Shown: piece by piece, positions 17,367 to 59,655 of the stretch | How the letters are laid out: the number at the start of each line of letters is the position of its first letter | Position numbering within the stretch: the stretch's first letter is position 1 | Origin: Trichoplax sp. H2 | Taxonomy: Eukaryota | Length of the DNA: 64,000 bases | NCBI GenBank assembly: GCA_003344405.1 | Contig: NOWV01000016.1 | Location: forward strand, 1 to 64,000 | Direction: 5' to 3' | The notes under the pieces: model-generated | Seen by the model: only the letters and a program-made list of their open reading frames with translations | Database searches by the model: none | What the model was told of the DNA's origin: nothing | Position numbers and translations under genes: made by a program

Positions 17367-17388
17367 TATATATATATATATATATATA
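17367..17388. repeat. (TA)n microsatellite in RPL28 intron 1
   Basis: Run of about 11 TA dinucleotides. Confidence 0.9.
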
Positions 17389-18370: not shown

Positions 18371-18425
18371 CAGTTGATCAGAGTAATGGCGTAGCGACCA
18401 CGAGGCCAGAAAAAAAGAAGGATGC
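18371..18425 (-). promoter_or_regulatory. RPL28: RPL28 non-coding first exon starting with a TCT/5'TOP pyrimidine tract
   Basis: Minus strand CTTCTTTTTTTCTGGCC...CAACTG|GTAAGT; intron 18370-17289 ends CTTGCAG just before the ATG. Typical ribosomal-protein promoter architecture. Confidence 0.8.
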
Positions 18426-18578: not shown

Positions 18579-19938
18579 GATACAGTAGAGTAAAGTGACC
18601 AGAAAAAATTTCTGATCCTTGAATTTTCCACACACGGTATAATGCATAGTTAGCTAATGCATGACTATAGTAATAATAACTATTTAATTAATTATTAATA
18701 ACTACTGCACTTAGCTTCCACGAATATTTAATTAGTAGATCTGTAGATACAGTAGAGTAAAATGACCAGAAAAAAATTTCTGATCCTTGAATTTTCCACA
18801 CACGGAATGATGCATAGTTAGCTAATGCATAACTATAATAATAATAACTATTTAAATAATTATTAATAACAGCTACTGCACTTAGCTTTCACGAATTAAT
18901 TAGTAGATCTGTAGATACAGTAGAGTAAAATGACCAGAAAAAAATTTCTGATCCTTAAATTTTCCACACACGGAATGATGCATAGTTAGCTAATGCATGA
19001 CTATAGTAATAATAACTATTTAATTAATTATTAATAACTACTGCACTTAGCTTCCACGAATATTTAATTAGTAGATCTGTAGATACAGTAGAGTAAAATG
19101 ACCAGAAAAAAATTTCCGATCCTTAAATTTTCCACACACGGAATGATGCATAGTTAGCTAATGCATGACTATAATAATAATAACTATTTGAATAATTATT
19201 AATAATAACTACTACATTTAGCTTCCACGAATTAATTAGTAGATCTGTAGATACAGTAGAGTAAAATGACCAGAAAAAAATTCCTGATCCTTGAATTTTC
19301 CACACACGGAATGATGCATAGTTAGCTAATGCATGACTATAGTAATAATAACTATTTAAATAATTATTAATAACAACTACTGCACTTAACAACAACTGCA
19401 CTTAGCTTCCACGAATTAATTAGTAGATCTGTAGATACAGTAAAGTAAAATGACCAGAAAAAAATTTCTGATCCTTGAATTTTCCACACACGGAATGATG
19501 CATAGTTAGCTAATGCATAACTATAGTAATAATAACTATTTAAATAATTATTAATAACAACTACTACACTTAGCTTCCACGAATATTTAATTAGTAGATC
19601 TGTAGATACAGTAAAGTAAAATGACCAGAAAAAAATTTCTGATCCTTGAATTTTCCACACACGGAAGGATGCATAGTTAGCTAATGTATGACTATAATAA
19701 TAATAATAACTATTTAAATAATTATTAATAACAACTACTACACTTAGCTTCCACGAATTAATTAGTAGATCTGTAGATACAGTAGAGTAAAATGACCAGA
19801 AAAAAATTTCTGATCCTTGAATTTTCCATACACGGAATGATGCATAGTTAGCTAATGTATGACTATAATAATAATAACTATTTAAATAATTATTAATGAC
19901 AGCTACTGCACTTAGCTTCCACGAATTAATTAGTAGAC
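18579..19938. repeat. Tandem array A: 8 copies of a ~168-bp unit
   Basis: Unit starts (GATACAGTA...) at about 18579, 18746, 18914, 19082, 19250, 19434, 19605, 19776; copies nearly identical. Confidence 0.97.
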
Positions 19939-21230
19939 CTGGATAGTATGATGATCAAAGTAGAGTATGCGTAAAAGTCTGCAACTCAAAAATTCCAGTT
20001 TTTATCGCTATTCCTCGAATCGATTCTCCGCCTCGAACTACCCTGTGTCTACCCGCGTCCACCTATTTTAATTAAATAAGTTCTCAATTTCGTAATTTCA
20101 GCAACTCTTGACGTACAGTATGTGGCCCCAATGGGTGCTGCTCATCACCAAGACAACGCTTGAGCAGCAAAGTGGCGTTCAGAGGCTCAACACTGCAGTA
20201 AAATCTAAGTTGAAAGTTTGCATGATATTGAAGTCAGTTAAATGACGTCGTATTATCGCAAATTGCCTATTGCACATAGGCTATAAGTATTCTAATATAG
20301 TTAGAAGTCAGCCAGAGTTGGCATTAGATGTTACTATTTCAATCGGGTAATCGCCCCATTTTAGAACTGCTATCGAAAACAGCACCTAACTAGGCTTGGA
20401 GGATGACTAAGTAGAAGTATAGTTTCTCAGGAATTCCGTTGCATTTGTAATCTTAGTATGATGAGAAAAAAATCGAATTATGATTAGCATCCACTGAAGA
20501 TGGACTACGATCTTGCATGCGTACACAATTACACACTATTATGAAAGAGTGATTAAGTAGAGCAGCCCTTTAGAAATCTATTTCGTCTGCTAGTGGTGAT
20601 AGTACAAGCTAGTAACAAGAATTTTGGTAATCATCGTTATTAAAATTAGTTTATTATTATTATTTAACATATTATGTAAGGATATCTTCTATGTGCAATT
20701 TTATATTTTGCACTTGCTTTCCTCCTTCTTAAACTAACTAGTCAAGCAAAAGGTAATGTAACACTGTAAAGTTATACCGTCAATAAAAGATATTTCCTAA
20801 CAATTAGTTGCATATATTTTAAAGCTCCTTTTCAATTGTATCCATTGGTAAGGTAAGGAATTATCTTATTCAACGTTAAGATAAACTGCATCTATTCAAC
20901 AATGTAACTTACAGTGCCAACATTAAGTTATTAACAATTTATAATTCTATGATCAATTTCAAGGTATGGCAATTCATGAAGTATCTTAATATAAAATTGA
21001 AAAACTACACAAAACTCGAGTATTTTTAAAGAAATAAAACTTTAATGACGCCTTTTAAATTTCGTACTCTTTAAATGGTCGGATAGCTTGACTTGAAATG
21101 TGGATTTAAGTTACCAAAACCACGACTTCTTGTGGCTGTCAAGTAATGTAGTGGCGAATGTAAATAAACGTTTATATTAAATGTATTAAACTAAATACAG
21201 GTTAAAATACTGAAAATACATGGCTTGCAT

Positions 21231-24609: not shown

Positions 24610-25599
24610 TTTCTATAGTTTTTTTCCCCTTTTGGGCTAATTAGTAGTCGACTAGAAAGATTATTTATTTATACAGAGGTTGTAATGTAAAAGTTGCCAA
24701 GTGTAGCTGATATGAAACCTTTATAAGTGTTCACTAACGTTTACTAACTGTAAATATACCTTGTACAGGGATGGGCAATATCTCGTCGTATAACTAATTA
24801 TCGACTGTTTTATAGTACAGTATGTAGTGTAAACAGTAGTGAGGATAGATCGTGAAGAGAATAACCCCTTGGAATGACTATAGACAGCAGAAATCGATGG
24901 ACTTTAAATGGATAACAAATGTCTAGAATACATTAGTATATGACTGTATACTAAAGAAGAGCTTGCCACTGTATCCGTACAGCAAGCAGTATAGTGTATG
25001 GTTCAATGCTGTACGGATATGATTTTGTACGGTATAATAGCTAACATTACAATGCTTGGATTAAATGATTAGCAAGATGGCTACTCGTTCTCTAGTCTCC
25101 CGAACGGTTTTATTAATGTTTTAAACATTGCTAATTTTTGAGTAATCTAAGATAGTTCACTGCAGCTTGATATCAGTCAGCCTAAAATCAATAGGGTTCT
25201 TAAGTAAGACAGTAGTATGTTTCAAGATTGCTTTTACTACTTATCGTCGTTGGCCGATTAATTATCTCCTTACGTAGGTGAAAGTTTTCTGTTTTTGTAT
25301 CGAAAGCCTTTAAAGACTTCAAAATTCAGTTAAAATCTCTCCATGAATATGTTCGATAATCGTGAATAGCGACGGTGAATTCTTCCTTTATAGACTAGTA
25401 ATCGGGTATAATAAGCCTACAATTGTTAATGTATTACTTGCAGATCAAAATTAATTACACCTCATTGAAAAAATTTCGAAGATTGATGCTCTTGTCGATT
25501 TTAAGTATGTTTATGATCATGGTAGACTTCAATGTCTTTCCTTATCCAAGAATAAATAGCATGCTAAAATATCAGGCACATACAATAACTTAATAGTTC

Positions 25600-26280
25600 G
25601 TTGGCAAAGCTAACTTTATTTAATTCGTAGAATAACGGAAAAGTGTGTATTGAAATATTAAGCGCATGCGATAATTGAGCAGTTTATGAACAAGGCCAAC
25701 TTTGTCAAATTCTTATAGTGAAGTAAAATTGTATTTAAAACATGAAGCATGTGCAATAAATAAACAGTTTACTAATAAGGTTAACGTTACTAAATAGAAC
25801 TTGTATTTGAAGATAGGGAGTATATGCAGTTCATTAACGATTTACTAACCGGAGTGAGATATCAAATTCTTAGTAAGGTTAAGATTGCAAAAAATGTGCA
25901 ATATCTTCTGCTTATATTAGTAGAAATTATATGTCAAAGGATTAAGCGCACGCATTACATTAACGATTTACATGTTAACCAGGATTAACTTTATCAAATT
26001 TTAAGAAGGTTATAATTTTAAAAATGCTGTATAATATCTCCTAAGCGTATTAATGAAAAATTGTGTATTAAAATATTAAGCACATGTAACAGATTAGTAG
26101 GTTTATTAGCAAGATTAACTTTAGCGGATATTTAGTATGGTAAGGATTTTAAATGCAATGCCACTTGTGAATAGAAAATGTATATTAATATACTAAATAT
26201 GCAATACATTACAATGTCTCTCCTACTTAATGAAAAACTGTATATAAAAGATCAACATATGGGATAAATTAATATTACCT
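25600..26280. repeat. Heavily decayed tandem repeat, roughly 130-140-bp spacing
   Basis: Recurrent degenerate blocks TGT(G/A)T(A)TT..AAATATTAAGC(G/A)CA(T/C)G...ATTAACTTT(A/G)TCAAATT near 25645, 25800, 25930, 26060. Confidence 0.5.
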
Positions 26281-27253
26281 AAAATTACCGAGATATTACC
26301 ATACACAAAAATAGATTATTTATTTATCAGTAAAACAATAATATGTATACCTTGAAAGACAAATACAATCTATTTAATTAAATTATGATCTAAACAGTAA
26401 AGGATATTATTGACTTTCTCTGCAGTAAGCGCTACAATACCTGCTTTCGAGAGTCTTCCAAGTAGTGATTATACATTGATAATTTTGATATTGTTTCAAT
26501 TATTGTAGCTGGCGCCTAACAATATTGTTATTATTGTAAATAAATAACTGCATTTACACATACATTTAAATAGTCTTACGTACTATTCTTTCATAAATCG
26601 ATAGCAGCCTATGCCTATATACTGTACGCTGATATGAAAATACGAGACAGCCAAACCCTTTCAGCAGACAAATGCATTACATTGAATAGATGGAAGAAAA
26701 ATAGATTTCCATTTATCTAAATATAAAATTTCTTTATTCAATATCAGGAATTTTACTTTTGGTCATGCATACAAATTAAATATCTCTAGAATTGGTATCT
26801 ATACACGCATGGATAAGAGCATTCTTCTTTGAATGTTGGAATATTGCTAAGTATTGTGATGCACGAGCATATACAATAGTTTAATTGATTTCTTAATTAA
26901 TTATTGGGAACAGTTGCGACTTGGAGAGAATGTGGGCTGATTTCTTTTGAACTGTAGCTTATTAGTAAGCGCTTAAATAGTGGTAATTGGAAGGAAATTG
27001 TTACAGTTGTTTTAGATCATATAGATTACCATAACGTAGATTAGATATCTATTTCACAGTAGTAAGAATGTAGTAATAAATGTTCTTTCCATTAGAATTA
27101 TATTTTTAAGTCTACAGAGTAAATGGATTTTAGTCCTCTTTTGTAGTATTTCTCAGTTATACAGAATCGATACCATATTTAACAGTTTCTATCTCAAACT
27201 TAATCTTTCACCATAGTTTGTAAATTGAAGTCTTAATTAGGTTATGTGGTAAC

Positions 27254-29239
27254 ATGGTTAAATCGCTGCGACGATCTATTTCAATCATTGTATCGGTAAT
27301 TATTGCATTTACTTTTGAGCAAAATGCTGATGCCCTCCAGATTTTTAACCAAGCCGTTAATAATTATTGCACAGAAAGTAACTCCGCAACAGACTGTCCT
27401 AGTAATATACCAGTTCAAGTCGGTTCAATTCGTTCAGATAAATCGATTCTCAATATAGACTATTTTGATCTCAATTTATGTCTTGTACAATCATCCTATT
27501 TACCAGTTAAAAGCGTCGGTCAGGGATTACTAGCGCACTTTTATCATCGGCCATCATTTAATATCTCATTTGGATTGAATCAAAGAAATGTTCAAATATG
27601 TAATGTAACGTACAATCACAATAACTCAATCAGCAAGAAAAAATTTGATAAATTATTATATGCCATCCGGAATAACTATATGTTATACTGGTCAATCGAT
27701 GATATGCCGCTTCGTTGGTGCTATCCTGTTATAGCTGGAAACAAGAGATTTTGTACCGATGGTTTTCCTATTGGATGTCATATCGATAAGCGAGGAAAAA
27801 TGACCACGGGTTGCTATTTACTTGATTTACCTTCATTAAATGATGTATATGTTATTTTTAATCATTTAGATATAGAGATATCATATACAACTAATTATAT
27901 GTCCGAACGTTCAATGTTAATTGCAGCTGTGGTCCGACCACGTAGTCAAACTAATAATATTAGAAAAACAAATACCGTTATTTCTCCAATTTTATCAAGA
28001 GATAGTAGCAAGAGAAATTCAATCGTGAGTTGGTCGTATACTTATTCAATTAGCTATAAACGCATAATATCAAATAGGATAACGCGACGAGATTTTTTCG
28101 CCAGCTACAGCCCGTATTCTTTTAGGCAGTGTAGTAGCCTATTTAATATCTTATTAATTGTTACATTTCTGACACTTATGATTGTTAGAATATTTTACTA
28201 TTCTTTTGGTAGAAGCGATGCAATGATTTCATCAGTAAGAAGCAATCAAATTATGCTAAAGCATGGATGGAGAGCAATTCGTGGCGATGTATTTAGATCT
28301 CCAAAATATTCCTTGTTATTATCTGTTTTAACTGGTTCAGGTATACAGTGTTTGCTGGCAACTTTTTATACGCTAGCACTAGCATGGATTGGCTTTATAA
28401 GTTTTAGTAATCCTTCAGAATTGCTATCGTCGGCTATTTTATCATATGTTTCATCTGCAAGTACTGCTAGCTATATATCCGCAGTTACTTATAAGACTAT
28501 TGATGGCAAAGATTATATTCTTAGTTTTATTATGACACCAACGTTAATACCTGGCATTTTCCTTGCTATTCTCTACATACTGAACTCTATATCACTTAGT
28601 ATGCTTACTCTATCAACCCCACCACAAACATTTATATTATTGCTAATAATGTGGCTATTGGTATTATGTCCACTATCTTGTATTGGATCCTACTTCGGTT
28701 TTAAACGAGAAGCATTACAGTTACCTGTCAAGCCAAGTAAAACGCCACGACAAATCCCTGAGTATAAGTTCTATAAATATCCTCTACTTGGTGTTGCTAT
28801 AGCTGGTGCTTTAATTTTTTCTGTAGTTGTAGTACCGATATCTGTCTTTCTAGATTGCCTTCAAACACATAATATTAACGAATCTTACGGCTATTCTATT
28901 CTCTATTTTATTCTAACAATATTATTATGCATTCAGATATCAGTTTATTTATGTCATTTATATTTATGTGCTGAAAATTATCACTGGTGGTGGAGGGCAT
29001 TTCTAGCTGGTGGATCAGTCGCTATATTTATTTTATTATATAGTTGTTATTTTTATCTTACTAGAATATCGTATAGTTCTAATGCATATAGTATGACATA
29101 TTTCATAGTCTACTTTGGCTATTGTACCGTCTTAGCAATCTATTTTAGCCTAATGACAGGTAGTATTACTTTCATTGCTGCCTTTATATATGCCAAGTTT
29201 GTTTATCAATACGCTAATATGGATATCATTCAAGTCTGA
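27254..29239 (+). CDS. Transmembrane 9 superfamily (nonaspanin) protein, divergent TM9SF2-like, single coding exon
   Basis: 661-aa ORF with signal peptide; IDDMPLRWCY...FCTDGFPIGC (TM9SF2-like Cys motif); IFNHLDI; GWRAIRGDVFRSP; PRQIPE; ENYHWWWRAFLAGG; multiple C-terminal TM helices. Confidence 0.9.
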   Translation: MVKSLRRSISIIVSVIIAFTFEQNADALQIFNQAVNNYCTESNSATDCPSNIPVQVGSIRSDKSILNIDYFDLNLCLVQSSYLPVKSVGQGLLAHFYHRPSFNISFGLNQRNVQICNVTYNHNNSISKKKFDKLLYAIRNNYMLYWSIDDMPLRWCYPVIAGNKRFCTDGFPIGCHIDKRGKMTTGCYLLDLPSLNDVYVIFNHLDIEISYTTNYMSERSMLIAAVVRPRSQTNNIRKTNTVISPILSRDSSKRNSIVSWSYTYSISYKRIISNRITRRDFFASYSPYSFRQCSSLFNILLIVTFLTLMIVRIFYYSFGRSDAMISSVRSNQIMLKHGWRAIRGDVFRSPKYSLLLSVLTGSGIQCLLATFYTLALAWIGFISFSNPSELLSSAILSYVSSASTASYISAVTYKTIDGKDYILSFIMTPTLIPGIFLAILYILNSISLSMLTLSTPPQTFILLLIMWLLVLCPLSCIGSYFGFKREALQLPVKPSKTPRQIPEYKFYKYPLLGVAIAGALIFSVVVVPISVFLDCLQTHNINESYGYSILYFILTILLCIQISVYLCHLYLCAENYHWWWRAFLAGGSVAIFILLYSCYFYLTRISYSSNAYSMTYFIVYFGYCTVLAIYFSLMTGSITFIAAFIYAKFVYQYANMDIIQV

Positions 29240-31081
29240 CTTTACAGCATATCTTATATGTATGTAATATACGTGTACTGTTAGCTGTGTGCAATGAGAG
29301 TTTAATTGCAGGGTTCACTTAAATGGCATTGTGTGAAAAACTGATTCATACAGGGTATAGAGCTATTCAAAGTATTAGTTCCAATTATTTGGTTGTTTTA
29401 TCAACAATATTTCCACTAGAGATAGTTTTACGTACTGTATCTTATGTGGTAGTATTTGCAATGATTAATATGCTATGTTAAATGTTACTAACGTCAAGTA
29501 TATAATTTGAAGTATTTTGTAAGTGAGTATAATTATTGATTGAATTATTGATAAACTTAAGATTAATCTATGCACATACACGTATCATCAACTGATTTTT
29601 AGATATCTAGAAGAGGCGTAGCCATTGTTGACATGATTTATAAATTTGTTGGGATACGCCGTAGTTCAGTCAAATAAAATACTGTACTGCAGAGGTGGTT
29701 CTTAACTGATTGCTTGTAGAATCTGCTAATAATTGGATAACGGTATGTTTTAAAATTTTAAATCGTGAAATGCTAACTAGTGCTTTATGAATAAAATTCT
29801 TTCCAACGAATGTCTTATTAAATCTTTTACAAGTTACTTGATCGAAATTTAATTGATGTACAGTATTATCATAATGCATACATAAAGTAGTGACATTACC
29901 CATTATTGTGGTTGAATGATTTTAATTACTGTACGTATAAATAGTATGGATGCAATCATTGCCCTAATGCAGTATGAACTTAAATTACCTCTCCTAAGTA
30001 GTTTACTTTATTATTATTTTATACACTTTCAGCGGTAGTATGTTTCAGTTAGGGGCTTTCCTGATATGGGTTCGTTTCAAACGACGTAATTTTCAGGTAG
30101 ACAGAAGTGATGGCTAAGCCCTTCATACTGTCGCAACTATACTTATAATATGATATACGGGCTAATTTAAATGTCAGTTCCATTTTGAGCTATTCGAACT
30201 TCGATTGGTAGCGTTATTAAGGCCTTTATAACCCTTTTATATGAGTATATCTCCCGGAGTGTCTACTTAGGGATCATTATACTCTGCGTCAAAAAGAAGC
30301 AAAAATTTGAAAACTAAAACTTTCAATATATTTAAATTTTTGATAATAAGAAAGCTTGTAGTATAAATCAAAAATGTAGTTTGTATATAAACGAAAGGAG
30401 AACAAAGTTACTTAATCTATATCCAGTATTATAATCAATAGTTAAATGTACGTAAATATGCATCATCGATGACTACATATTTGATTAAATGTATATAAAT
30501 GTAAAATTTTTGTATTTTTAGCTAAGTACATCAGGTATATTTACGCTTTATGAACGATATTTATACATGAAACATTTGCAAAATGCTATCTATTACTTGT
30601 ACATATGTAACTCGTTAACCGCAGCGATAAATAACATGATAAATAGATAACCGTATTAGTTTTATATTTATTACTAAAAGGTACTGTATAGGCATATAAG
30701 AATCAAATATTTAAAACAAACACGGTTTGAGGTGATGTATCGGTAATATAAAATTGTCATAAATGTATCGATCTACACTTGCAACGTTACTAAGCTTGAG
30801 CTGATATACGTGATTATCGACCGAGATATTTTTATTTGGTTATACATAGGACGAATAACATTGATATCACGTCTAACATACATGCTAATTGTGAGTACAA
30901 GCAATGCCGTCTTTCAGTAAAATAAATGTGCAGGATGACAGCAAATATTTATAGAATGAAAGTATATAATCTAGTTGAGTTATCTGATTATATGATAACA
31001 TATTCACAAGGTAGAGTTGTTACACTTATTGCAAGCAAGGATAATAGTCTATTGTATATGGAGTAAAAAGGATCTTGAGAA

Positions 31082-33468
31082 TTAGTCTTCAATCCTATCG
31101 CAACGCAAAATGTACCTTTTATGGAATAAAAAGATTGATAGAGATTTTAGCCAAGTAGAATTCTTAATAACAATAATCATGATTAGCTTACCCTTTGCTC
31201 TTAATTATACCGCGATGCTTAATGAGAGCAGTATATCTTGCAACCCAAATAGGTTGCCAATTGTCATTCTCGGAAGAAAAATAGTTGTTTAAAGTTGTTT
31301 TTACGTAATCGGCATCTAGAATATCTATAAATCAGATTAGCGTTATACATAAAGATTGCACAAATAAATAATATCGGTACAGTATGTCGATGCATGACGC
31401 ACCTCTAAGATCGGCATGAGTTAAAAGACGCACATTGTTTTCTTTTGCATATGATACTAATTCCTGTAAAATAATTATGTAATAAGTAGTACGGAAGAAA
31501 AGTATGTTACATTAATAAGCTAATCCTTTAATTTACCGGTGGTATTACGCAGCAGGTTGAGAGATTAACTGAATTTGTAGCTGGCTTAATCTAAAAAAAT
31601 TAACAAAAATGAAAAGATGTAGGCACTACAATCGCAGATATTAACATATGTTCGTACAAATGGCGGTACTGCATATTTAGTTTTAGATATGATACAGTTA
31701 GGTTAATAAAATTTTGGCATATAGTGATCGTCAGATAGCATCATTCACTGTACCTTGGACCAATCATGCAACTGTGATAGTTGATTCAAATCGAAATCAC
31801 ATATCCCAATCTCTTGAATATGTCCATTATCGACAAATTGTTCCATCATCTATATACGTATTACATATAATTATTATAGATCCATATATCAAGACAATAT
31901 GATAACAGGCATTCTTTTAGCGTAAAGTTCTGTTATTGTCTCTGATATGTAAATCATTATTTTACCTGCCATATATCTTGAACGTCACTGCTGAAATCTG
32001 TAACGGATGGTGGCAGAGATAATGTCGCGTTATCCACCTTGGTAATACCAAGTTCCTGGATTACTACCGATATATGAGAGAGCGGGTTAGAGAAAGATCA
32101 AATGTTGTAATGGTAATGGTAATTTCACTCCATATTTAGGGGATGAGTAACATAAGTTTGAGTCATGCGATAATTTACAATTTAATCATCGCATTTATAT
32201 AGTATTTACTGAAGAATTGATAAAATCATTTAGCGGCTAGTTGAATTGTTTGTATTTATTCAGAAAGGGAATGAAATGAAGTACACCAACTAGAGAAGTA
32301 TTAAAATTGTGACTTCACCTTGTTCGAGGGCGTCTTTTACATCAAAAGATTTTCCACTTAAAGCAAATATTTTAGCTAAACAAGAGAGGATAAGAATTTG
32401 AGCTATTTTGTTTAATGAAGTTTGTTGTAATAACAAGGGTATCATAGAATTAAGATATTTATTAATATTTGTACATTTATATTAACATTAAAAGTAGTAA
32501 GTAAGCCTTACCGGAAATCTCGAAGTCATTGAGACTATCGCTACTAATTTTAGATGGAAATTGTTCATGCCGGCAAGTCAGAATCTCTTGATCCTAAATA
32601 TCAGGCAATATGTTGAGACATTTGCATAAACTAGCAATGATATGATCTTCAGTTACAGTCATCAACTGATGACGTAATATGCAGAGAGATAATTTGCCTG
32701 CAAGCTATACATTACCATACAACATGTTTTCTCTAGGTGTTATCGACTACTATGTTAATAGATAGAGTAAGTACAGTAGTAATCTTTTCGTTTATCACAA
32801 AATAATTTCATTGCTTTATCTCGTACTTTATGTACAGATTGCTATTACGATAGGCTTTAAAGCATGTTTTTAAGTTTCTCTTTATTTCGCTCATTCTACG
32901 TGAACGCTGCAACAGAAAGGGTGATCTGTATTTGTCTTGTATTGTATGATATAATGCACTACTATTTACTAGCACATTGAGATCAATTTTTTGATACAGT
33001 ATGTTCAATATCCAGTAGTGAGATGATATTTGATTATAGTATAAATAAGTCTATGTTCGAAAACATAGATATACCTTTAAAGATTGGATATCGACCGATT
33101 CCTTCCAAGCAGTTAGAGTACCATCGACGCATTTCTGAAGCTGTAAACCACAGAAGAAAGAAATTATTCAATTTTGAATAGACCTATTTCATGATTGAAA
33201 GAATTAATACAATTATTTTCAATCCATCGCTGCCACCGGTTTATAATACTGTCAACACTAAACAGTGATGGCAGTTTATTGGATTGGAAGCTCGATCGAT
33301 ATAACAAGTATTGGATAAGGTGATTGTTGCATATTGACAGATTTGAAGCAATGGCTGAATTAGATTAACCTCGCTTTTGGAAGACTGACTAAATTTTCCT
33401 TTTAGTCTGTTCCATTCGGTTAAATTTCCAGTGTTGATGTATAATTTTTGCGTTGCTTGACTGACCAT
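31082..33468 (-). CDS. GCLM: Glutamate-cysteine ligase modifier subunit, multi-exon
   Basis: Spliced translation: MVSQATQKLYINTGNLTEWNRLKGK...LQKCVDGTLTAW...FEISAKIF...IGICDFDLNQLSQLHDWSKIKPATNSVNLSTCCVIPPELVSYAKENNVRLLTHAD...WVARYTALIKHRGIIKSKGYILRCDRIED*. Probable 5'UTR intron 33916-33491. Confidence 0.93.
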
Positions 33469-34216
33469 AGCTCAATTTAGGTGGAATCGCCTACAGAAGA
33501 GATCGAAGCGATTGAAGATTATTTTGATTGCCGATAATAGTCATTGAAGATCGTATTTTACATCAACGTATAAAGAGCATGGATATTATCCATTAACGGA
33601 ATGGATGATTGATATCGATGACTATGTTACCTCCATAGAAAATGTGAAATTGATACATTCATTTATGAATTCATTGAATACTCGTATGACAACAAAATCA
33701 ATTAGGACATTAATCCATCGTTGCAAGCTCGAGTTGCCCAAGTATCGTGCTCGTATTATCAAACAAAATCACGAAGTAAAGTCAACAGCAGTTCTGGCTG
33801 GTTTAAAGATGAGCAAAAGTTTGCAACAAACCAAGTTATTCACACGGTGAATTACTGTCTAAGAATGACGATTGCATGTATATTTATATATGGATAGAAA
33901 TGGAGATTGAGCTCACCTTGGCGTAGGGTTTGGCAAGTTGGAACTTCTTCAGAATAGACTACCGGTAAACCTTTTGCTTCGACACTTTATACTGACCATC
34001 TCTAGACCACACTCCCGTCCTGCGCTGAGACTGCGTACTGTACAGTGTACAGTACCTAGATTCGGCTGCAAAATTGTATCGTCATGCTGGCGGCAAGGCT
34101 ATACGATTGTAACAAAGATCGGCTGAAGGAGAAGAAAAGTGCTGCGTGTGCTACAGTACCAAGAGTTGCAGCAACACTGTACACTGTAAGAAGGAATCAT
34201 CCTACTGTAACATTAC

Positions 34217-35081
34217 GAGTCGGTAGAGACATCATGGACTGCCAAGAAACTTCCTTTTTTTAGTCCCTAGGGACCACTAAAGAGAGAAAATTACTAATTC
34301 ATTCATTATTACAGTGTATGTATATGTATATAGATTAGCAGTCGGTAGAGGCATCATGGACTGCCAAGAAACTTTCTTTTTTTAGTCCCTAGGGACCACT
34401 CTTTAAAGAGAGAAAATTACTAATTCATTCATTATTGCAGTGTACTGTATGTATATGTATACAGATTAGGAGTCGGTAGAGGCATTATGGACTACCAAGA
34501 AACTTTCTTTTTTTTAGTCCCTAGGGACCACTCTTTAAAGAGAGAAAATTACTTATTCATTCATTATTGCTGTGTATGTATATGTATATAGATTAGCAGT
34601 CGGTAGAGACATCATGAACTACCAAGAAACTTTCTTTTTTAGTCCCTAGGGACCACTAAAGAGAGAAAATTACTAATTCATTCATTATTGCAGTGTATGT
34701 GTATGTATACAGATTAGGAGACGCTAGAGACATTATGAACTACCAAGAAACTTTCTTTTTTTAGTCCCTAGGGACCACTAAAGAGAGAAAATTACTAATT
34801 CATTCATTATTGCAGTGTATGTATATGTATTACAGATTAGGAGTCGGTAGAGGCATTATGGACTACCAAGAAACTTTCTTTTTTTAGTCCCTAGGGACCA
34901 CTAAAGAGAGAAAATTACTAATTCATTCATTATTGCAGTGTATATACTGTATATGTATATAGATTAGGAGTCGGTAGAGACATCATGAACTACCAAGAAA
35001 CTTTCTTTTTTAGTCCCTAGGGACCACTAAAGAGAGAAAATTACTAATTCATCCATTATTGCAGTGTACTGTATGTATATA
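34217..35081. repeat. Tandem array B: 7 copies of a ~122-130-bp unit
   Basis: Unit GAGTCGGTAGAG...TTTTTAGTCCCTAGGGACCACTAAAGAGAGAAAATTAC...; each copy carries the palindrome GTCCCTAGGGAC. Confidence 0.97.
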
Positions 35082-35203
35082 CATTGTAAATTGAATAGAA
35101 TTCCTCCACGTCCATTTCACGTGAAATTCTCTATAGTCAATCATAATGAGAGGAGGAAAGAAAAGAAAAAGGCGATGTAATGAAGGGGGATCCTAGCTAA
35201 GAC

Positions 35204-35775: not shown

Positions 35776-35794
35776 TGTACAGCATAGTATCATG

Positions 35795-35838
35795 GTCATG
35801 GGCTGCTAAATTCACCGGTGAATTTAGTAGGCCATGAC
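35795..35838. repeat. 44-bp loopless inverted repeat
   Basis: GTCATGGGCTGCTAAATTCACC|GGTGAATTTAGTAGGCCATGAC; central 22 bp perfect, 2 mismatched pairs overall. Confidence 0.9.
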
Positions 35839-44753: not shown

Positions 44754-44905
44754 CTTGTCGTTTGGGAATGGATGACGTCAAGATGACTTCGACAGCATTA
44801 CCGGTACGGTAATGCTGTACTGTACTGTACGTCGAGGTTTTCCTGGTCTGGTCCGGTCCGGACCACTGACTGATACAGTCCGGTACTGGTACCAGTACCG
44901 AGGCT

Positions 44906-45467
44906 GAGGAGAAAGAAGAAACTTTAGTACAGTAGAGTTCTACTCGACGCTTAAGGGAAAACCTCGAAAAGATTATGTAAAGTCTTTGCAAGTTGAAAGG
45001 TTACGAGACTTGATGAGGAGAAAGAAGAACAGTAGTAGATCAGTATGGTTCTACTGAAGACCTAAGAAGGGAAAACCTCGAAAAGATTACGTAAAGCCTT
45101 TGCAAGTTGAAAGGTTACGAGACTTGATGAGGAGAAAGAAGAACTGTAGTAGATCAGTATGGTTCTACTGAACACCTAATAACGGAAAACCTCCAAAAGA
45201 TTATGTAAAGCCTTTGCAAGTTGAAAGGTTATGAGACTTGATGAGGAGAAAGAAGAACAGTAGTAGATCAGTATGGTTCTACTGAACACCTAATAACGGA
45301 AAACCTCCAAAAGATTACGTAAAGCCTTTGCAAGTTGAAAGGTTACGAGACTTGATGAGGAGAAAGAAGAACTGTAGTAGATCAGTATGGTTCTACTGGA
45401 CACCTAAGAAGGGAAACCTCGAAAAGATTACGTAATGCCTTTGCAAGTTGAAAGGTTACGAGACTTA
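44906..45467. repeat. Tandem array D: 5 copies of a ~114-bp purine-rich unit
   Basis: Unit GAGGAGAAAGAAGAAC...GGAAAACCTC..AAAGATTA(C/T)GTAAAGCCTTTGCAAGTTGAAAGGTTACGAGACTT starting at 44906, 45015, 45129, 45243, 45357. Confidence 0.97.
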
Positions 45468-46075
45468 ATAAGGCAGTTGATCGGTTTGCTGCAGCTAATT
45501 TTCAAGGTGAAAGTGGCTAAATGAGCTGTTGCCTGCCGATAGAGTACGGTAGACGTTTTGAGGGGCAGAGTAGAATGACCATAGGAAGGAGAAACCTGCA
45601 AATTTGGAGGGGGGAGCACTATACTGTACTGTACGCTTCTCTTCCTTAGTCGTTCCTACATTACTGTAGAGCTGTGCAAGGAGCTTAGAGGATTTATCCG
45701 CTACACCATTCATGCTATAAGAGGGCTATGGTGACATTAAGTTGCTGTGATCGTTGAATATTACTAGTGTACAGATCATAAATGACATAGTTATTGCTAT
45801 AGCATGGTTGTAAGCATTGGAGAATACCAATGAGCATGATAACAACACGATCATTGTACCGATCTCCCGAATCGAATCGGTAAGAGGAATTGGGTAGAAT
45901 TACTCTATGAGCAGACTGAAATAAAAATCACTCAGTATTGCAATTAGATATTTTACATTTGATCGAGCTCAGAATTCATCCATTGGATAATAGACGTCAT
46001 TAGACTCATTACGGTATTGGACTTAGTATCAACTAGGTCCTATTTACGCCTGAATATACGCATAAAGAGATCAGC

Positions 46076-46981
46076 TATGCAAAATGAGCGCTCCGTCTAC
46101 CTTGCAATGTGCCAAAGTAATACTGTAGTAATGGCCTTGTCAATGGGTAAACGCCATGCAAAATGAGCGCTAAGTCTACCTTGCAATATGCCATAGTAAT
46201 ACAGTAGTAATGGCCTTATCAGTGGGTAAACGCCATGCAAAATGAGCGCTCCGTCTACCTTAGAAGGTGCCATAGAAATGCAGTAGTAATGGCCATCATT
46301 ATCCGTGGATAAACACTATGCAAAATCAGCGCTCCGTCTACCTTAAAAGGTGCCATAGAAATGCAGTAGTAATGGCCATCATTATCCGTGGATAAACACT
46401 ATGCAAAATCAGCGCTCCGTCTACCTTGCTATGTGCCATAGTAATGCAGTAGTAATGGCCATCATTATCTGTGGATAAACACTATGCAAAATCAGCGCTC
46501 CGTCTACCTTAGAAGGTGCCATAGAAATGCAGTAGTAATGGCCATCATTATCTGTGGATAAACACTATGCAAAATCAGCGCCCCGTCTACCTTAGAAGGT
46601 GCCATAGAAATGCAGTAGTAATGGCCATCATTATCCGTGGATAAACACTATGCAAAATGAGCGCTCCGTCTACCTTGCTATGTGCCATAGTAATGCAGTA
46701 GTAGTGGCCATCATTATCTGTGGATAAACACTATGCAAAATGAGCGCTCCGTCTACCTTAGAATATGCTATAGAAATGCAGTAGTAATGGCCATCATTAT
46801 CCGTGGATAAACACTATGCAAAATCAGCGCTCCGTCTACCTTGCTATGTGCCATAGTAATGCAGTAGTAATGGCCATCCTTGTCAGTGGATAAACGCTAT
46901 GCAAAATCAGCGCTCCGTCTACCTTAGAATATGCCATAGTAATGCAGTAGTAATGGCCATCATTATCCTTGGATAAACACT
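46076..46981. repeat. Tandem array E: 11 copies of a 79-83-bp unit
   Basis: ATGCAAAA starts at 46077, 46156, 46235, 46318, 46401, 46484, 46567, 46650, 46733, 46816, 46899. Confidence 0.97.
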
Positions 46982-47679
46982 AAGGTTGTTGCTAACATCA
47001 TACTGTAGTAACATGGATACTAGAACAAGATATTGAGCGTAGTAGATTCCATTGCGCTATCAATTTGCGGTTACAACTAGTATTATACTAGGACATGAAC
47101 TATGTTTTTGGTACTTGGCCTACGGTTGTGAATATCGGCATTCATGACTAACGGCACTTGATTATAGCTTGCATCTTTCTGCTCTTCCTTGTCCTCTTGA
47201 GACCCAGTTTTGTTAAGGATTCCATCTTCCAGTCACAATGATCAAGACTTTCATGGTATAACGATAATTTGGGTCCTAGTGAGAAGAAGGAAACTAGTGA
47301 ATAGATCACAATCAGTAGCGATTATCGTGATTATAGTAAAATAGAGTGCAAGGTGGATCGTGCTCGCTTGCAGTATTCTTAGTCATCCCATCCGAAAGGA
47401 CAAATCGAAAGCTCAACTTTATTCAAGCTAGCGTTAGTAAAGTGGTGTAGAACATCTTTATTTTAAGGCTGTTGCTACATCAAATTACGTCTTAAGACAG
47501 CCATCTCTTCTTGCATCGAGATTGACCGTTGGGTTGTTATTAGATAGCGCCTTTCACTTACTAGTAGAGGTGCTGCAAGTATCATTGATATCCAGCTTTT
47601 TCAGACTGTAGCAAGTCTTGTACCGTTAAATCCTCTATTCTACTAGACGTGTTTTACTCCATCTTGGAAATTGATCTCA

Positions 47680-50600
47680 ATGGGTTTAACTGTTATTGGT
47701 GAAGACAGCGTTGAGAATTATTTATTCTCATTATTTGGTAAAGTTCCACTTGAAATTGGCCTATTAATTGGACAGGTAAATAGGCTCTTATCCAATACAA
47801 GTTCATTCATTTTTATTACAAATGAATGACACTAGACGCTGTTGCACTACACTTTTCGTTGTTGTATCAACTGATGTATAGCAATCGGCTCTATACTTTC
47901 ATTAAAGCTAAGAGTGATAATAGCATTATCAAAGCTAACATATTGCATAGCATTAGTATTATTTTTCACTACTTTTATAGGCGTAATAGCCTTAATGGTA
48001 GTCGGATTGGGATAATGTACATTTCACAGTATCATCGACAATATGGAACTGATTATATTTTACGTACATTTTTATATTGCCCAACAGATTAAATATATCA
48101 TTTATTACTAGCCAATTGTAGATAAATAATGCATTGTTATTTATTCATAAAGTTTACTGTTTGTGTACCTATCGAGTAGTAGACTCTTACTTGAGCAGCC
48201 TTCCAAAATATTTTTATAAATCGTTAACTAATCTTCATCGTGCTATCTAATCTCAAATATACCTGTACTGTACGGAAATATTTATTCTCGATTTCTCTAC
48301 CTCTTAATCCCTGCTAACTTGTAGAATTTCGGTCAAAAAGCCTATATTGTTTCACCTATACGAACACCAGATCCTGAAGAACTAAGTGGTAAGATCTTAA
48401 AATGAAATCTAGGATAGGTTATCATGTTAATCATTATAAATCCATAGATCCAACACAATAGTATCGAGTTGGCATTGCTCTATTTTGCAATACACGTATC
48501 TTTGGCTTTGGCAAACGTGCTACTCCTACGATAGCTTGATACATCTTAAAAATTCTAGTAATTATCTAATTTTTCTATGTGGACTAAGAACAAGTTACTA
48601 CTGGTGCACTTGCCATAAATTGAGTATTAGTATGTCTATTATCAAATAGATTCTGTGTCATAATGAAAACTTGTATAATATTCCAATTTTGATGCATTAG
48701 CTTATACAACGTTATGTACATTCACGAAGATAACTATTCTTTTGATGCTAATGCATGAATGTAGATGAACAGAGTGAAGAGCCTAAAAAGGCACAGCCTA
48801 AATCATTAGATCAGTTTGACATCGGTTGGGTAGCCGAGCACGCTAGACAGGTAATACTGTTAGGGCATCAAGGATGAACATGACGTGCAATGATATATCT
48901 ACTTTAACAGCAATAATTACAGCACGATATTGTTAATCATTTCACTTTAAACATATACTTAGGTAAATAGTTCGTTACCTGGAGGAATAAAGGTTGTAGG
49001 TATCTACGTTTTTGCGTCGCCCGATGTCATCCAGTCAGGTATAAATGGACGGTTAAAACAGATACTCAATGCGGCTTGGAAAGCCAACCGATTAGAGATG
49101 CAACACGCTACAAGTGTTGTCGACAATAAATCTTTATGTCCAGGAAATGGAATCCTTTTATATGTTTCTTCAAATACCAAAAAGTATCCTTGATTCTAAA
49201 ATTTGATCAGTAAACATACGATGTGTACCCATAAATGATAAAATTATATTATTTTATTGTAATATTATCGACTAAAGGTACTATAATCTAGGCGCATTTA
49301 TAATTTGTCAATTAGTAAGACTTTATTACTGTAATTATATCCACATAATTATTGTCTATGCAGAACTCCTAATCCAAAATAATTATAACCTCGAAAGTGA
49401 TATATTATCGACATTTAAAGCTTACAAATTTAATATAATTGCAAATGTTTGTTACCCCTGCAATCATATTTGTGCTTGAAGTTATCAAATTTAACAAATT
49501 TCTAGAATATCATGCAAGAGCTTCGACATTAATAATCCACATGTAAGTTTTGATATGAAAGCATTAATACTCTAGTTTGAAGGTAACTTAAATGACAATC
49601 CACCCATTTGAAGGAAACTTATAATAGACGTAATTAAATTTATCTATAAAACTCAAAGACATCCGCTCAGCCCACGGATTGGAAATGTCAAAATTTTATC
49701 GGGAGGTGTCATTATCTGCGTTGTGCTTTCCTAGCAGATGCATCAATTATGGTTCGATCGTCGAGTTCTGGCAATCTTAGTAACGAAATCATGGTTAGTT
49801 TTAGTTACTTATTTAAAAAAGAAATATTCGCATGTTATGTACGTATGATACTTAATCAATATTTATTTAATTATCTTTAGGTGAGTCTAACGAATGTTAA
49901 TAAGCAATTAACTGCTGCTCATGCAATGATAAACTCCGAATTAAGAGAGCCTAGTCAATTGCTTGTTGTAAGTGATTCTAAGAATTTACTTGTTAAATCT
50001 CAATCGGACTCTATAGTCGTTGACTATTGATAATTATTTTGTAATACTTTTATGCTTCTAAATATACATTTTATTCCCATATTATTTGGGAACTAGACCG
50101 GAAAAAATACAAACACCGCACAAACATTCACTGTTGATTTATACAACTCTTACAAGGTTCTTGCAATAATAACTTACTCAGACCATTCTATTTTTGTCTA
50201 ATATAGCAAATTGAATGCTTATTATATCATTGTCTTCAATGTACTGTATGTTGACACAAGCGTGATACCAAATAACTACTTGAAATTTAGAATATCGCCA
50301 ACGCAACAACGAAGCCCCAGGAAGCGGATTACAAATATGCTATTAATATAAATGGCGAAATGGACTGCTTTGCCTATGTACACAATAAAGCTACTGTTGC
50401 AGAAGCTATTCATGTAATTATTAAAAAATAGGCGGGATAACTCCATTACAATTATTAATATGATCTACCAATTAGTTACTAACAACTCATTCGAATTAAA
50501 ATCACTATCGTACGTTTTGAACTAGGCTATTAAAGTCGACATTATACGAAGTTTGCATGCACGAATTCGTTTACTATGTGAAGATGTTGAGCAAAATGAA

Positions 50601-58196: not shown

Positions 58197-58410
58197 CTTG
58201 AATTTTCTGTCAATTTTTTTTTCCTTCTTTGAAAATTGGAAGAGCCACGTAGTTTGAGTAGCTCGAGCTGGTTGACTGAATTTCAATGACATGAACAGCC
58301 TAGTGGAACACTTTGCTCAATATTACAGGAATACTATGGAGTTGATAGCATCGTACTGTATGTACCATACTGTTTTGTTCGCTACCGCTTTCCGTACTGA
58401 GAAGCACTGA

Positions 58411-59655
58411 GACCGGAGACCGGACTGGAGTCCAGTCTAGAGTCATCTCAATGGTAGATCGATCCACGCCATTGTTGTGGTGTTGTCAGTATGGAGTATG
58501 AAGCGACAACAACACACTGCAAAACGCGACACTGGTAGAGTACGAAGCGGTACAGTACTGTAGTGTGACGCCACTACTGATGTCACTCTCTGTAGTTCAA
58601 CGCCACCACTGTAGTGACGTGAATCACGTGATACTTGCACTTCACTTTGGTATGACGTATGACGCGATGACTGCTGTCACAGACTCACAATACTGAGTAC
58701 GTAACCACGTCTAACTGAATTCTATCATACTGTATTACTATTTCTGTCCTGGTGTTGAAGTACTATCCCAAGCTGTCCACAGTTTACAAAATCGACAGCA
58801 TCCGTCGGTCCAGATTTTCTGTAACAGGAAAATCGCGGATGACTCTAGACCGGACTGGAGTCCAGTCTAGAGTCATCTCAATGGTAGATCGATCCACACC
58901 ATTGTTGTGGTGTTGTCAGTATGGAGTACGAAGCGACAACAACACACTGCAAAACATGACACTAGTAGAGTATGCAGCGCTACAATACTGTAGTGTGACG
59001 CCACTACTGATGTCACTCTCTGTAGTTCAACGCCACCAGTGTAGTGACGTGTAATACTTGCACTTCACTTTGGTGTCAGTATGACGCGATGACTGCTGTC
59101 ACAGACTCACAATACTGAGTACGTAACCACGTGTAACTGTATTCTAGCATACTGTATCACTATTTCTGTCCTGGCGTTCAAGTACTATCCCAAGCCGTCT
59201 ACAGTCTATAAAATCGACAGCATACGTCGGTCCAGATTTCTGTAATAGGAAAATCGCGGATGACCGGAGACCGGACTGGAGGACAGTCTAGAGTCATTGT
59301 TGTGGTGTTGTCAGTATGGAGTATGAAGCGATAACAACACACTGCAAAACACGACACTGGTAGAGTATGCAGTGGTACAGTACTGTAGTGTGACGCCACT
59401 ACTGATGTCACTCTCTGCAGTTCAACGCCACCAGTGTAGTGACGTGTAATACTTGCACTTCACTTTGGTGTCAGTATGACGCGATGACTGCTGTCACAGA
59501 CTCACAATACTGAGTACGTAACCACGTGCAACTGTATTCTACCATACTGTATCACATCTTCTGTCCTGGTGTTCAAGTACTATCCCAAGCCGTCCACAGT
59601 CTACAAAATCGACAACATCCGTCAGTCCAGATTTCTGTAATAGGAAAGTCGTGAT
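58411..59655. repeat. Tandem array F: 3 copies of a ~420-430-bp unit filling the RABL6-PTGES2 divergent intergenic region
   Basis: GACCGGACTGGAG at 58418, 58848, 59269; copies colinear with small indels (copy 3 has an internal deletion). Confidence 0.95.

Follow-up and report, generated by a model that had tools for sequence, protein, structure and literature searches.

In Trichoplax, 2.7% of the genome consists of tandem repeats; its 9208 minisatellites account for 2.4%, and transposons for 0.13% (Wang et al. 2010, Biol Direct 5:18, PMC2871265). The catalogued minisatellites were defined with Tandem Repeats Finder (TRF) and have units of 7-1204 bp, mostly at low copy number; the Findings of that paper give their counts and size distributions, and no relation to gene starts or gap types. 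The same genome carries an (ACAGT)n microsatellite, 54% of which lies within 1 kb upstream of genes and which is enriched at ribosomal protein genes (PMC2871265). Elsewhere, about 25% of yeast promoters hold a tandem repeat (Vinces et al. 2009, reviewed in PMC3899988), and common human minisatellite VNTRs are described as enriched within 1 kb upstream of genes (PMC8096271). In placozoans, repeated sequence is also reported at housekeeping promoters (Kim et al. 2025, PMC12221973). By title and abstract, none of the papers listed for Trichoplax tandem repeats, promoters, chromatin loops or ACAGT deals with where long-unit arrays lie.

Here we describe six long-unit arrays (units of 83-421 bp) in Trichoplax DNA. 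Like the yeast promoter repeats (PMC3899988) and the human VNTRs (PMC8096271), they lie close upstream of genes. What defines the yeast and human cases is that their copy number varies and that they affect expression. An earlier note on this DNA had proposed that promoter-proximal DNA is repeatedly amplified locally, either as a promoter or insulator system tunable by copy number or as a footprint of replication or recombination initiation at open promoters. We think it probable that the arrays are ordinary locus-specific minisatellites, positioned by where a compact genome tolerates insertions.

Six unrelated arrays of different ages

Run at default settings on the window (the whole stretch of 64,000 bp that was analysed), TRF returned 16 rows and recovered all six long-unit arrays, A-F, spread over one 41-kb stretch (Table 1). 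The earlier note had described their units as mutually unrelated, and this was borne out: all-against-all blastn of eight repeat blocks gave no match between arrays at E <0.05, and comparison of the arrays with the remaining window gave a single marginal match of 21 nt (E 0.006). Unit matrices resolved A into 8 units of 166-184 bp (pairwise 84-97% alike), B into 7 units of 121-131 bp (86-94%), and C, which is separated from B by 117 bp, into two pairs of 116-126-bp units (71-83%). D consists of 5.0 units of 114 bp (94-96%), and E of 11 units of 79-87 bp (78-98%) with the greatest divergence in the edge units. F has 3 units of 421, 421 and 397 bp (83-90%); an older third copy opens the array, and the period of about 421 bp agrees with the roughly 425 bp given before. 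TRF also detected an additional 371-bp higher-order period in B.

By both TRF and the unit matrices, the arrays are head-to-tail copies with units inside the range of roughly 7-2000 bp that marks minisatellites. Unlike most catalogued Trichoplax repeats, of which 94% of types stay under 4 copies (PMC2871265), four of the six exceed 4. In the 64-kb window no tRNA was found and no Rfam family reached its gathering score, and the reading frames that cross the arrays match no Pfam family.

Unit identities over the six arrays range from 71 to 98%, with C the oldest and D the youngest. A decayed array had also been reported in the divergent gap between the CYP and TM9SF genes. It is real but weak: its two parts have 67% matches under lenient TRF and are absent at default settings with a lowered score. 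Together with this remnant, the identities from 71-83% in C to 94-96% in D look like a birth-and-decay series.

Table 1. Positions of the arrays and of neighbouring features in the window.
Feature	Position	Strand	Description
ACAGT/GTAC promoter microsatellite cluster upstream of DDX39	4310-5120	.	includes (GTACA)8.4 at 5004-5045
Tandem duplication inside DDX39 intron 5747-6631	6216-6578	.	lenient TRF, 176 bp x2.0, 74% matches
RPL28 5' leader exon	18371-18420	-	pyrimidine-tract start, donor 18371; read from sequence alone
Array A	18579-19941	.	TRF 168 bp x8.0, 91% matches
Decayed array, CYP/TM9SF head-to-head gap	25565-25795; 25832-26153	.	lenient TRF, 86 bp x2.7 and 131 bp x2.5, both 67% matches
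GCLM 5' leader exon	33916-34020	-	donor 33916 by RNA joint; start probably near 34020
ACAGT cluster between GCLM leader exon and array B	34037-34210	.	loose-ended contigs of run X1 converge here
Array B	34212-35083 by default TRF; 34212-35085 in all	.	TRF 122 bp x7.0
Array C	35205-35758 by default TRF; 35202-35761 in all	.	TRF 126/125 bp, 2.1+1.9 copies
ACAGT cluster upstream of DARS2-like ATG (36595)	36190-36410	.	within depth bin 36170-36836
ACAGT elements and GGTCCGGACC palindrome, ZDHHC12 promoter, between ATG and array D	44812-44935	.	sequence reading
Array D	44953-45473; 44905-45473 under lenient TRF (5.0 units)	.	114 bp x4.6
Array E	46075-46982 by default TRF; 46074-46982 in all	.	TRF 83 bp x11.0
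Array F	58417-59655 (third copy from 58417)	.	default TRF core 58900-59651, 395 bp x1.9

The arrays are genuine, probably local and old relative to the split of two organism labels

Assembled contigs of public runs provided depth data for arrays B, D and E from two DNA runs that carry different organism labels and belong to different studies. Contigs from both labels break at the same array edges; at the edge of B they end at 34259 and 34252. Depth in the array bins is 2-3.3x that of unique sequence and reaches 5.8-6.6x at single places. The peaks are the summed depths over array B, up to 5.8x and 6.6x in the two runs (at 34376, 361 vs 62 and 232 vs 35 in unique sequence). The bins with ACAGT clusters reach 8-23x unique depth with many loose contig ends. 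For the bin at 36170-36836 the two runs give depths of 1409 and 699, where unique sequence has about 62 and 35. In the cluster between the GCLM leader exon and array B, run X1 has 36, 24 and 67 contigs whose loose ends converge at 34035, 34036 and 34055.

Could the arrays have been mis-assembled, or collapsed or expanded during assembly? In keeping with such an error, the short-read contigs stop at the array edges in both DNA runs and none spans an array. However, in both runs contigs lead into the arrays out of the same unique flanking sequence and depth is raised inside, and the units carry ordered, unit-specific differences. The shared break edges and the two- to sixfold depth inside the arrays under both labels therefore argue that the arrays are no artefact of assembly, an explanation we consider scarcely credible.

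Over about 4.76 kb, the contigs of the two labels show only 11 and 16 differences from the window, whereas units within arrays differ by 2-29%. The arrays are therefore old relative to the split between the two labels, and the data do not suggest fast turnover.

The unrelated units and the low depth, compared with that of the ACAGT clusters, indicate that the arrays probably originated where they now lie and do not derive from a dispersed element. The proposal of local amplification is thus supported: units of different arrays show no relation to one another or to other parts of the window, A-E have no flanking ends, and depth is raised only 2-6x. No other copy of any array occurs in the window, and the DNA-contig depth of B, D and E fits the local copies and argues against many copies elsewhere.

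A transposon origin, in which the arrays would be internal repeats of non-autonomous DNA transposons such as Mutator that insert preferentially near gene starts, was also considered. Mutator insertions are reported to be frequent at placozoan housekeeping promoters (Kim et al. 2025, PMC12221973), and each unit of array F ends in 19-nt inverted arms. However, neighbouring arms in F are 2 bp apart and the junctions have no target duplication. An inverted-repeat search around each array and over the whole window found no terminal inverted repeats and no target duplications around A-E; the whole-window search returned only within-array palindromes and ACAGT matches. A-E thus differ from the Mutator-linked anchors in having no transposon features. 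The anchor motif, published as a figure, is described elsewhere in the literature as repeating ACGG. ACGGACGG-type repeats are absent here: ACGGACGG, CCGTCCGT and their one-gap forms have 0 matches in the window, and 5-mers related to ACGG do not cluster in it. The lack of a second copy of any unit in the window, the depth of B, D and E that local copies account for, and a genome with 0.13% transposons and a single MITE family, present in about 20 copies (Wang et al. 2010, PMC2871265), likewise speak against this origin, which we hold to be very unlikely.

Distances to genes and transcription

Between array A and the CTTCTTTTTTTCT start of the RPL28 leader exon downstream of it there are 159 bp; RPL28 has a Ribosomal_L28e match in Pfam. 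On its other side, array A is about 1.29 kb away from the stop codon of CYP, whose last exon was read from the sequence. Array B is 296 bp from the donor of the GCLM leader exon, which is confirmed by an RNA joint with CT..AC ends (33489>33916; one RNA run, X14). Array D begins 152-200 bp from the ZDHHC12 ATG (44753). Array E ends 699 bp before the ATG of an ODR4-like gene (47681), whose first RNA contig begins about 400 bp beyond the array, at 47380. Array F is 219 bp from the RABL6 ATG (58198, minus strand) and ends 142 bp before the ATG of the following gene (59797, plus strand). It takes up 1239 of the 1599 bp (77%) between the two ATGs, and therefore lies within about 220 bp of both gene starts.

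Gene ends were sought by scanning 149 of 225 frames of 28-54 aa with Pfam and then reading conserved C-terminal frames. Of the scanned frames, a single one, in GCLM, had a weak but useful match (Aldo_ket_red, E 0.0029). Neither step located the stop of GCLM or the final exons of the gene that starts at 59797. DDX39 was identified by a DEAD domain match, with its exon borders read off the sequence.

At least one array region is transcribed, because RNA-run contigs cover array D and the spacer between D and E. An RNA contig of run X14 (44612-45013) runs from exon 1 of ZDHHC12 into D, where RNA depth in the array bin is 18.5. The run whose contigs cover D and the spacer has no depth at all across the 5' part of the neighbouring DARS2-like gene. 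This cover counts against an explanation of array position by tolerance. RNA-contig cover is zero over array B and almost zero over array C, which does not speak for silent arrays. Run X18, labelled 'RNA?', was excluded as RNA evidence because it covers an intron unspliced (33708-34282).

Are the arrays biased to gene starts?

All six arrays lie on the 5' side of genes, as had been reported, in three head-to-head gaps and one head-to-tail gap. Arrays thus occupy 4 of the 6 gaps that hold a gene start and 0 of the 5 tail-to-tail gaps (Fisher one-sided p 0.045), in a comparison for which several gene ends were assigned by reading open reading frames. The same contrast weighted by free base pairs gives p 0.125 for the four gaps and 0.044 if the six arrays are taken as independent. 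With free DNA of 8.5 kb in gene-start gaps and at most 5.8 kb in tail-to-tail gaps, the contrast is borderline (p 0.045-0.125), and 'systematically', the word used for the placement of arrays at 5' ends, is too strong. Tail-to-tail gaps appear to be largely 3' UTR, and RNA contigs cover most of at least one: in the gap at 41278-42487, they span 41434-41787 and 41909-42579.

The contrast with introns is clearer: they hold one of eight long-unit repeats despite making up about 63% of free non-coding DNA (p 0.006; 0.03 by locus). That one, the 176-bp duplication in DDX39 (Table 1), contradicts the statement that introns contain no comparable array. The intron depletion and the gap contrast both count against an explanation by tolerance.

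Long-unit arrays make up 8.6% of the window (5514 of 64000 bp) and 39% of the DNA in the six measured gene-start gaps (5514 of 14062 bp). The share of the window, set beside the 2.4% of minisatellites genome-wide, is a further observation that counts against tolerance.

What sets the distance between arrays and genes? The earlier note had stressed a similar short distance from the gene start for A, B, D and F. The distances themselves were correct; what did not stand is the similarity of position, since array insertion points fall at 0.10-0.61 of free gap length, no different from random placement. Array A hugs its gene start, at 0.11 of the free length of the lone array-bearing head-to-tail gap, and this too counts against tolerance. 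The claim that promoters specifically drive amplification therefore finds no support beyond the location of the arrays in intergenic DNA with a gene start: the contrast with tail-to-tail gaps is borderline, and position within the gap fits chance. The window by itself cannot establish that gene starts attract arrays.

ACAGT clusters and palindromes

A low-complexity tract noted before DDX39 proved to be a dense ACAGT/GTAC cluster, that is, the known Trichoplax microsatellite. Its (GTACA)8.4 tract, about 500 bp before the DDX39 ATG, has 100% matches in TRF and is a perfect 5-bp repeat longer than 12 bp upstream of a gene, as (ACAGT)n microsatellites are. The DDX39 tract and the clusters beside B, C and D all belong to this element (PMC2871265). 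The six arrays, with units of 83-421 bp, are not built from it.

Every array nevertheless adjoins or contains ACAGT-type elements and, where adjoining, starts within about 5-45 bp of them. TACAGTA occurs 150 times in the window, against 16.4 +/- 3.6 in shuffles, is clustered upstream of genes and is present in five of the six arrays. The ACAGT elements found at every array are promoter-associated and, in a sequence-to-contact model, linked to insulation, which is another observation that counts against tolerance.

Amplified ACAGT modules were considered as the source of the arrays and rejected because arrays A, B, D and E have ACAGT densities of 2.2-7.7 per kb, near the window mean of 5.1 per kb. 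Array units mostly have zero or one ACAGT each; array C is ACAGT-rich, at 26.9 per kb. Hairpins were likewise rejected as a general basis, because unusual DNA folds are confined to F (z -4.2), D (-2.4) and two joined E units (-2.4; 20 control segments average 0.2). Palindromes do occur: each unit of array B carries GTCCCTAGGGAC, each junction of array F forms one of about 40 bp, and GTCC/GGAC palindromes are common to B, F and the ZDHHC12 promoter, although these hits come from four independent loci only, vs 2.6 in shuffles.

These features bear on a mutational hot spot at promoters, in which open, highly transcribed promoters with self-complementary ACAGT/GTAC clusters or palindromes would suffer breaks, fork stalling or recombination initiation, and repair would time and again yield tandem duplications beside gene starts. 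Consistent with this are the nearness of the arrays to ACAGT elements, the upstream clustering of TACAGTA, the F junction palindromes, the folds of F and D, the location of array A at the 5' edge of its gap and the depletion of long-unit repeats in introns. However, ACAGT density within A, B, D and E is close to the window mean, single units of A, B, C and E fold ordinarily (z -0.2 to -1.6), and positions within gaps fit chance. Moreover, the DDX39 cluster has the strongest ACAGT density (32 per kb) yet no long-unit array beside it. We therefore regard a hot spot as unlikely.

Discussion

The arrays are real, unrelated and of different ages. They occur under two organism labels and beside ACAGT clusters, and within the reach of the data each is confined to a single locus. 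We propose that each was born at its present site, at differing times, when a tandem duplication was enlarged by unequal exchange or slippage. Apart from upstream spacers, above all head-to-head ones, this compact genome may have no DNA of any size in which insertions several hundred base pairs long are tolerated; selection would presumably act against such insertions where they hit an exon, a short intron or the 3' UTRs that overlap in tail-to-tail pairs. The gene-side edge of the arrays, at 140-300 bp from the gene start, may be where the core promoter and ACAGT module begin, and arrays that stop there would give the look of a fixed distance. We infer that tolerance, through selection, rather than a mutational process specific to promoters, sets where arrays are found.

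Might the arrays instead be kept for a function? They could separate or insulate head-to-head promoters, bear factor sites or tune expression by copy number. Three of the four array-bearing gaps are head-to-head, F fills 77% of its gap and so lies within about 220 bp of both gene starts, and B, F and the ZDHHC12 promoter have GTCC/GGAC palindromes in common. Kim et al. 2025 (PMC12221973) describe contact hubs in which the housekeeping promoters of placozoans carry a common motif, a model of Trichoplax contact maps links ACAGT to insulation, and promoter repeats tune yeast expression (PMC3899988) and are enriched at human transcription starts (PMC8096271). By analogy with yeast, array sites 140-300 bp upstream of gene starts would be compatible with a nucleosome-free promoter. 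Tandem repeats in yeast promoters mostly have short units. Against a function, the unrelated units offer no common binding site beyond short motifs, and the palindrome matches come from four independent loci only, vs 2.6 in shuffles. The decay seen in C and in the 67% remnant is as expected for unconstrained DNA, and there is no sign of copy-number change between organism labels in contigs, which cannot count copies. On balance, a maintained function appears quite improbable.

A combined possibility deserves mention, although we would give it little credence. Head-to-head housekeeping spacers, bounded by the ACAGT or palindromic modules of promoter hubs, might repeatedly give birth to locus-specific arrays that act as length-adjustable buffers, and some of the reported 'Mutator insertions' might be local repeats bounded by inverted repeats, like F.

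We therefore favor locus-specific minisatellites placed by tolerance. For annotation, such arrays should not be taken for genes, RNA arrays or transposons, and they are also relevant for the cloning of placozoan promoters. If the 5' bias held genome-wide after correction for free DNA, some process linked to promoters would seem to make new DNA in one of the most compact and transposon-poor animal genomes, with a connection to the recently described placozoan promoter contact hubs. The window as it stands supports a more modest view, in which minisatellites in a tightly packed genome survive in the spacers between head-to-head genes.

Genes and tandem arrays of the window

At 30-43% G+C in 2-kb steps, the window is AT-rich, and intron-bearing animal genes fill it densely. 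Pfam was run on each of the 209 stop-to-stop frames of at least 55 aa (150 + 59), and gene starts and ends were then read in the sequence. The names GCLM, ZDHHC12, RABL6, NDOR1, DARS2 and PTGES2 are what we take to be putative orthologies, drawn from the earlier note, weak or generic Pfam matches and conserved end motifs. No frame upstream of the ACAGT cluster of DDX39 (1-4300) has a Pfam family, and the window holds no Rfam family or tRNA.

The 12 genes follow the strand order + - - - + - + - + - + -, with four head-to-head, five tail-to-tail and two head-to-tail gaps from DDX39 to ODAD1. The alternating strands give four consecutive head-to-head pairs with spacers of 1.6-3.1 kb each (5000-64000). 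RNA run X14 proves the GCLM leader exon by a joint (33489>33916, CT..AC ends), and the run also shows two further minus-strand introns. The RPL28 leader exon is non-coding and starts inside a pyrimidine tract (CTTCTTTTTTTCT); the first intron, about 1.08 kb long (17290-18370), separates it from the ATG exon. TM9SF (EMP70) is a single unbroken exon of about 2 kb (27224-29236), and the neighbouring genes have many short exons.

Genes, tandem arrays and other features of the window
Feature	Position	Strand	Details
DDX39	ATG 5543	+	DEAD and Helicase_C
176-bp x2.0 tandem duplication	6216-6578		inside 885-bp DDX39 intron 5747-6631; 74% matches, lenient TRF
NDOR1-like flavoprotein	stop 10465, start near 15030	-	Flavodoxin_1 and FAD_binding_1
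RPL28	stop about 16535, ATG 17283, leader exon 18371-18420	-	Ribosomal_L28e
Array A	18579-19941		unit 168 bp; identity 84-97%
Cytochrome P450	stop about 21231, ATG 24611	-
TM9SF	ATG 27255, stop 29239	+	one exon; EMP70
GCLM	ATG 33470	-
Array B	34212-35085		unit 122 bp; identity 86-94%
Array C	35202-35761		unit 126 bp; identity 71-83%
DARS2-like aspartyl-tRNA synthetase	ATG 36595, stop 41278	+
DHHC palmitoyltransferase (ZDHHC12)	stop 42487, ATG 44753	-
Array D	44905-45473		unit 114 bp; identity 94-96%
Array E	46074-46982		unit 83 bp; identity 78-98%, most divergence in edge units
ODR4-like gene	ATG 47681, stop 51337	+
RABL6	stop about 52803, ATG 58198	-
Array F	58417-59655		unit 395-421 bp; identity 83-90%
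F junction palindromes	58417-58447, 58838-58877, 59259-59297
PTGES2-like gene	ATG 59797	+	glutaredoxin/GST_N
ODAD1	stop about 62620	-
GTCC/GGAC palindromes	34263-35024 (7 sites), 44851-44863, 58422, 58852, 15558
DNA contig spans, run pairs	29500-34259 / 29500-34252; 35046-35225 both; 35346-36283 / 35346-36335; 36487-44172 both; 44238-44803 / 44238-45006; 45437-46099 both; 46953 onward both

The six tandem arrays that the earlier note had read from the sequence are all listed by TRF at default settings. Their units are mutually unrelated, as it held: all-against-all blastn of eight blocks gave no cross match with E below 0.05, and the arrays match the rest of the window only once, marginally (21 nt, E 0.006). 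The distances it quoted from four arrays to gene starts are right within a few bases (159, 296, 152-200 and 219 bp), and a third, older copy from 58417 brings out the long period of F (about 421 bp; 425 bp claimed). Lenient TRF (435 rows) adds only three long-unit loci. It recovers the decayed array of the P450/TM9SF gap as two adjoining repeats (86 bp x2.7 and 131 bp x2.5) with 67% matches. It also lists the duplication at 6216-6578, a small counter-example to the view that introns hold no array and the sole long-unit repeat located in an intron.

Array reality, age and structure

Contigs of two putative RNA runs and of two DNA runs, which carry different organism labels and come from separate studies, were mapped on 29500-49499, which covers arrays B, C, D and E. 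In both DNA runs, contigs extend from shared unique flanks into these four arrays and end there, and summed depth rises inside B (361 vs 62 in unique DNA for run X1; 232 vs 35 for run X3; contigs give no copy number). Array bins lie at 2-3.3x unique depth. The shared flanks and raised depth under both labels show that the arrays are real multi-copy DNA, and an assembly artefact is therefore unlikely. At 35196-35370 both DNA runs have a contig whose depth is about half that of unique DNA (34.8 vs 62 and 19.9 vs 35). Relative to the window it shows 11 letter differences and 5 gaps within the first C units, and it may represent either a second allele or a variant unit.

Unit identities, together with the 67% of the P450/TM9SF remnant, grade the arrays from young to almost erased. 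Over about 4.76 kb, the contigs of the two labels depart from the window at just 11 and 16 letters. Set against the divergence among units, this makes the arrays much older than the split of the labels.

Could the arrays derive from transposons? Array F has a palindrome of about 40 bp at every unit junction (19-nt arms with 95% complementarity and a 2-nt space between them), and each of its units is thus bounded by inverted arms, as a transposon origin might predict. However, no target duplication is visible at the F junctions and inverted-repeat searches around A-E found no transposon-like ends, making this origin unlikely. GTCC/GGAC half-site palindromes gave 12 hits, all within gaps holding gene starts, vs 2.6 in shuffles; since the hits come from only four independent loci, the pattern is weak and after-the-fact.

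The ACAGT microsatellite

TACAGTA occurs 150 times in the window vs 16.4 +/- 3.6 in 100 shuffles. ACAGT is concentrated upstream of DDX39 (32 per kb) and in the GCLM/DARS2 gap outside the arrays (21 per kb), with smaller groups at the starts of RPL28, ZDHHC12 and RABL6. These repeats are (ACAGT)n, the most abundant Trichoplax microsatellite, which has 54% of its copies in the 1 kb before genes and shows enrichment at those for ribosomal proteins (Wang et al. 2010, PMC2871265). The low-complexity tract before DDX39 is accordingly a known element. The available part of a 2026 sequence-to-contact-map modelling paper links ACAGT to insulation in Trichoplax, and likewise a repeating ACGG motif 'from a transposable element'.

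The arrays adjoin ACAGT clusters without being built from them: A, B, D and E hold 2.2-7.7 per kb vs 5.1 for the window; only C (26.9 per kb) and F (12.1 per kb) are rich. Depth in ACAGT-cluster bins reaches 491 and 253 at 33502-34168 and 1409 and 699 at 36170-36836, and dozens of loose-ended contigs converge at 34035-34055 and 36357-36375. Within the reach of these data, the microsatellite is everywhere in the genome and the arrays are local, not a dispersed element.

Position relative to gene starts

The earlier note held that arrays sit systematically at the 5' ends of housekeeping genes. Six measured gaps with a gene start add up to 14,062 bp (5,514 bp array, 8,548 bp free), and the five tail-to-tail gaps come to 5,842 bp at most. 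Arrays occur in 4 of the 6 vs 0 of the 5 (one-sided Fisher p 0.045); by free length, the chance that all events fall in gene-start gaps is 0.125 for four gaps or 0.044 for six arrays if counted as independent, with several gene boundaries read by eye. Tail-to-tail gaps consist mostly of transcribed 3' UTR, as RNA contigs spanning 41434-41787 and 41909-42579 of the gap 41278-42487 illustrate. This leaves less truly free DNA as a target and reduces the contrast. Introns hold one of eight long-unit repeats (p 0.006, or 0.03 by locus), taking an estimated intron total of about 24 kb, 63% of free non-coding DNA. The pattern is thus real in this window, but when tail-to-tail gaps serve as the comparison it gives borderline support for a link to gene starts (p 0.045-0.125).

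Insertion points lie at 0.11, 0.17, 0.27, 0.10, 0.52 and 0.61 of the free gap length. This placement is as expected at random except for A, the only array in a head-to-tail gap, where it lies at the 5' edge. The simplest reading of the apparent fixed distance is the combined width of core promoter and ACAGT module.

Why do the arrays lie where they do? We favor, as the most likely and on balance probable account, that they would arise by ordinary minisatellite birth and then decay, with survival confined to spacers that tolerate extra length. Ranked second, and in our view doubtful, is a mutational bias tied to promoters, perhaps via self-complementary ACAGT/GTAC clusters or palindromes. Unusually stable DNA folds of the F unit (single-strand, z -4.2), of D and of two joined E units (both z -2.4) are consistent with such a bias; single units of A, B, C and E have no unusual fold. 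Local amplification, as the earlier note proposed, is supported; that promoters cause it or are served by it is not supported by this window.

Transcription over array D

A spacer, insulator or tuning function ranks third and seems improbable, although RNA contigs of run X14 lie over D (depth 18.5), the D-E spacer at 45737-46106 (19-20) and, weakly, E (4.7). The same run has zero depth for the DARS2-like gene in its first 1.3 kb. One contig passes from ZDHHC12 exon 1 into D (44612-45013). Frames at D and the D-E spacer have no Pfam match and none looks coding. Since contigs give neither strand nor start, three candidates fit the RNA of 44612-46106, between the ZDHHC12 and ODR4-like genes: an extended 5' UTR, an upstream antisense transcript and an independent non-coding RNA.

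Relation to known repeats

Wang et al. list 9208 minisatellites that make up 2.4% of the Trichoplax genome (PMC2871265), and the findings text of that paper draws no relation between these counts and genes. The available text of Kim et al. 2025 (PMC12221973) describes placozoan housekeeping genes with promoter hubs and a common anchor motif, and Mutator insertions at housekeeping promoters. Promoter enrichment of tandem repeats is established in yeast (PMC3899988) and human (PMC8096271). Our search, which covered few subscription journals, turned up no publication about the location of long-unit arrays in placozoan genomes. Altogether, we class the arrays as locus-specific minisatellites of a compact genome, lying beside the known ACAGT promoter microsatellite.
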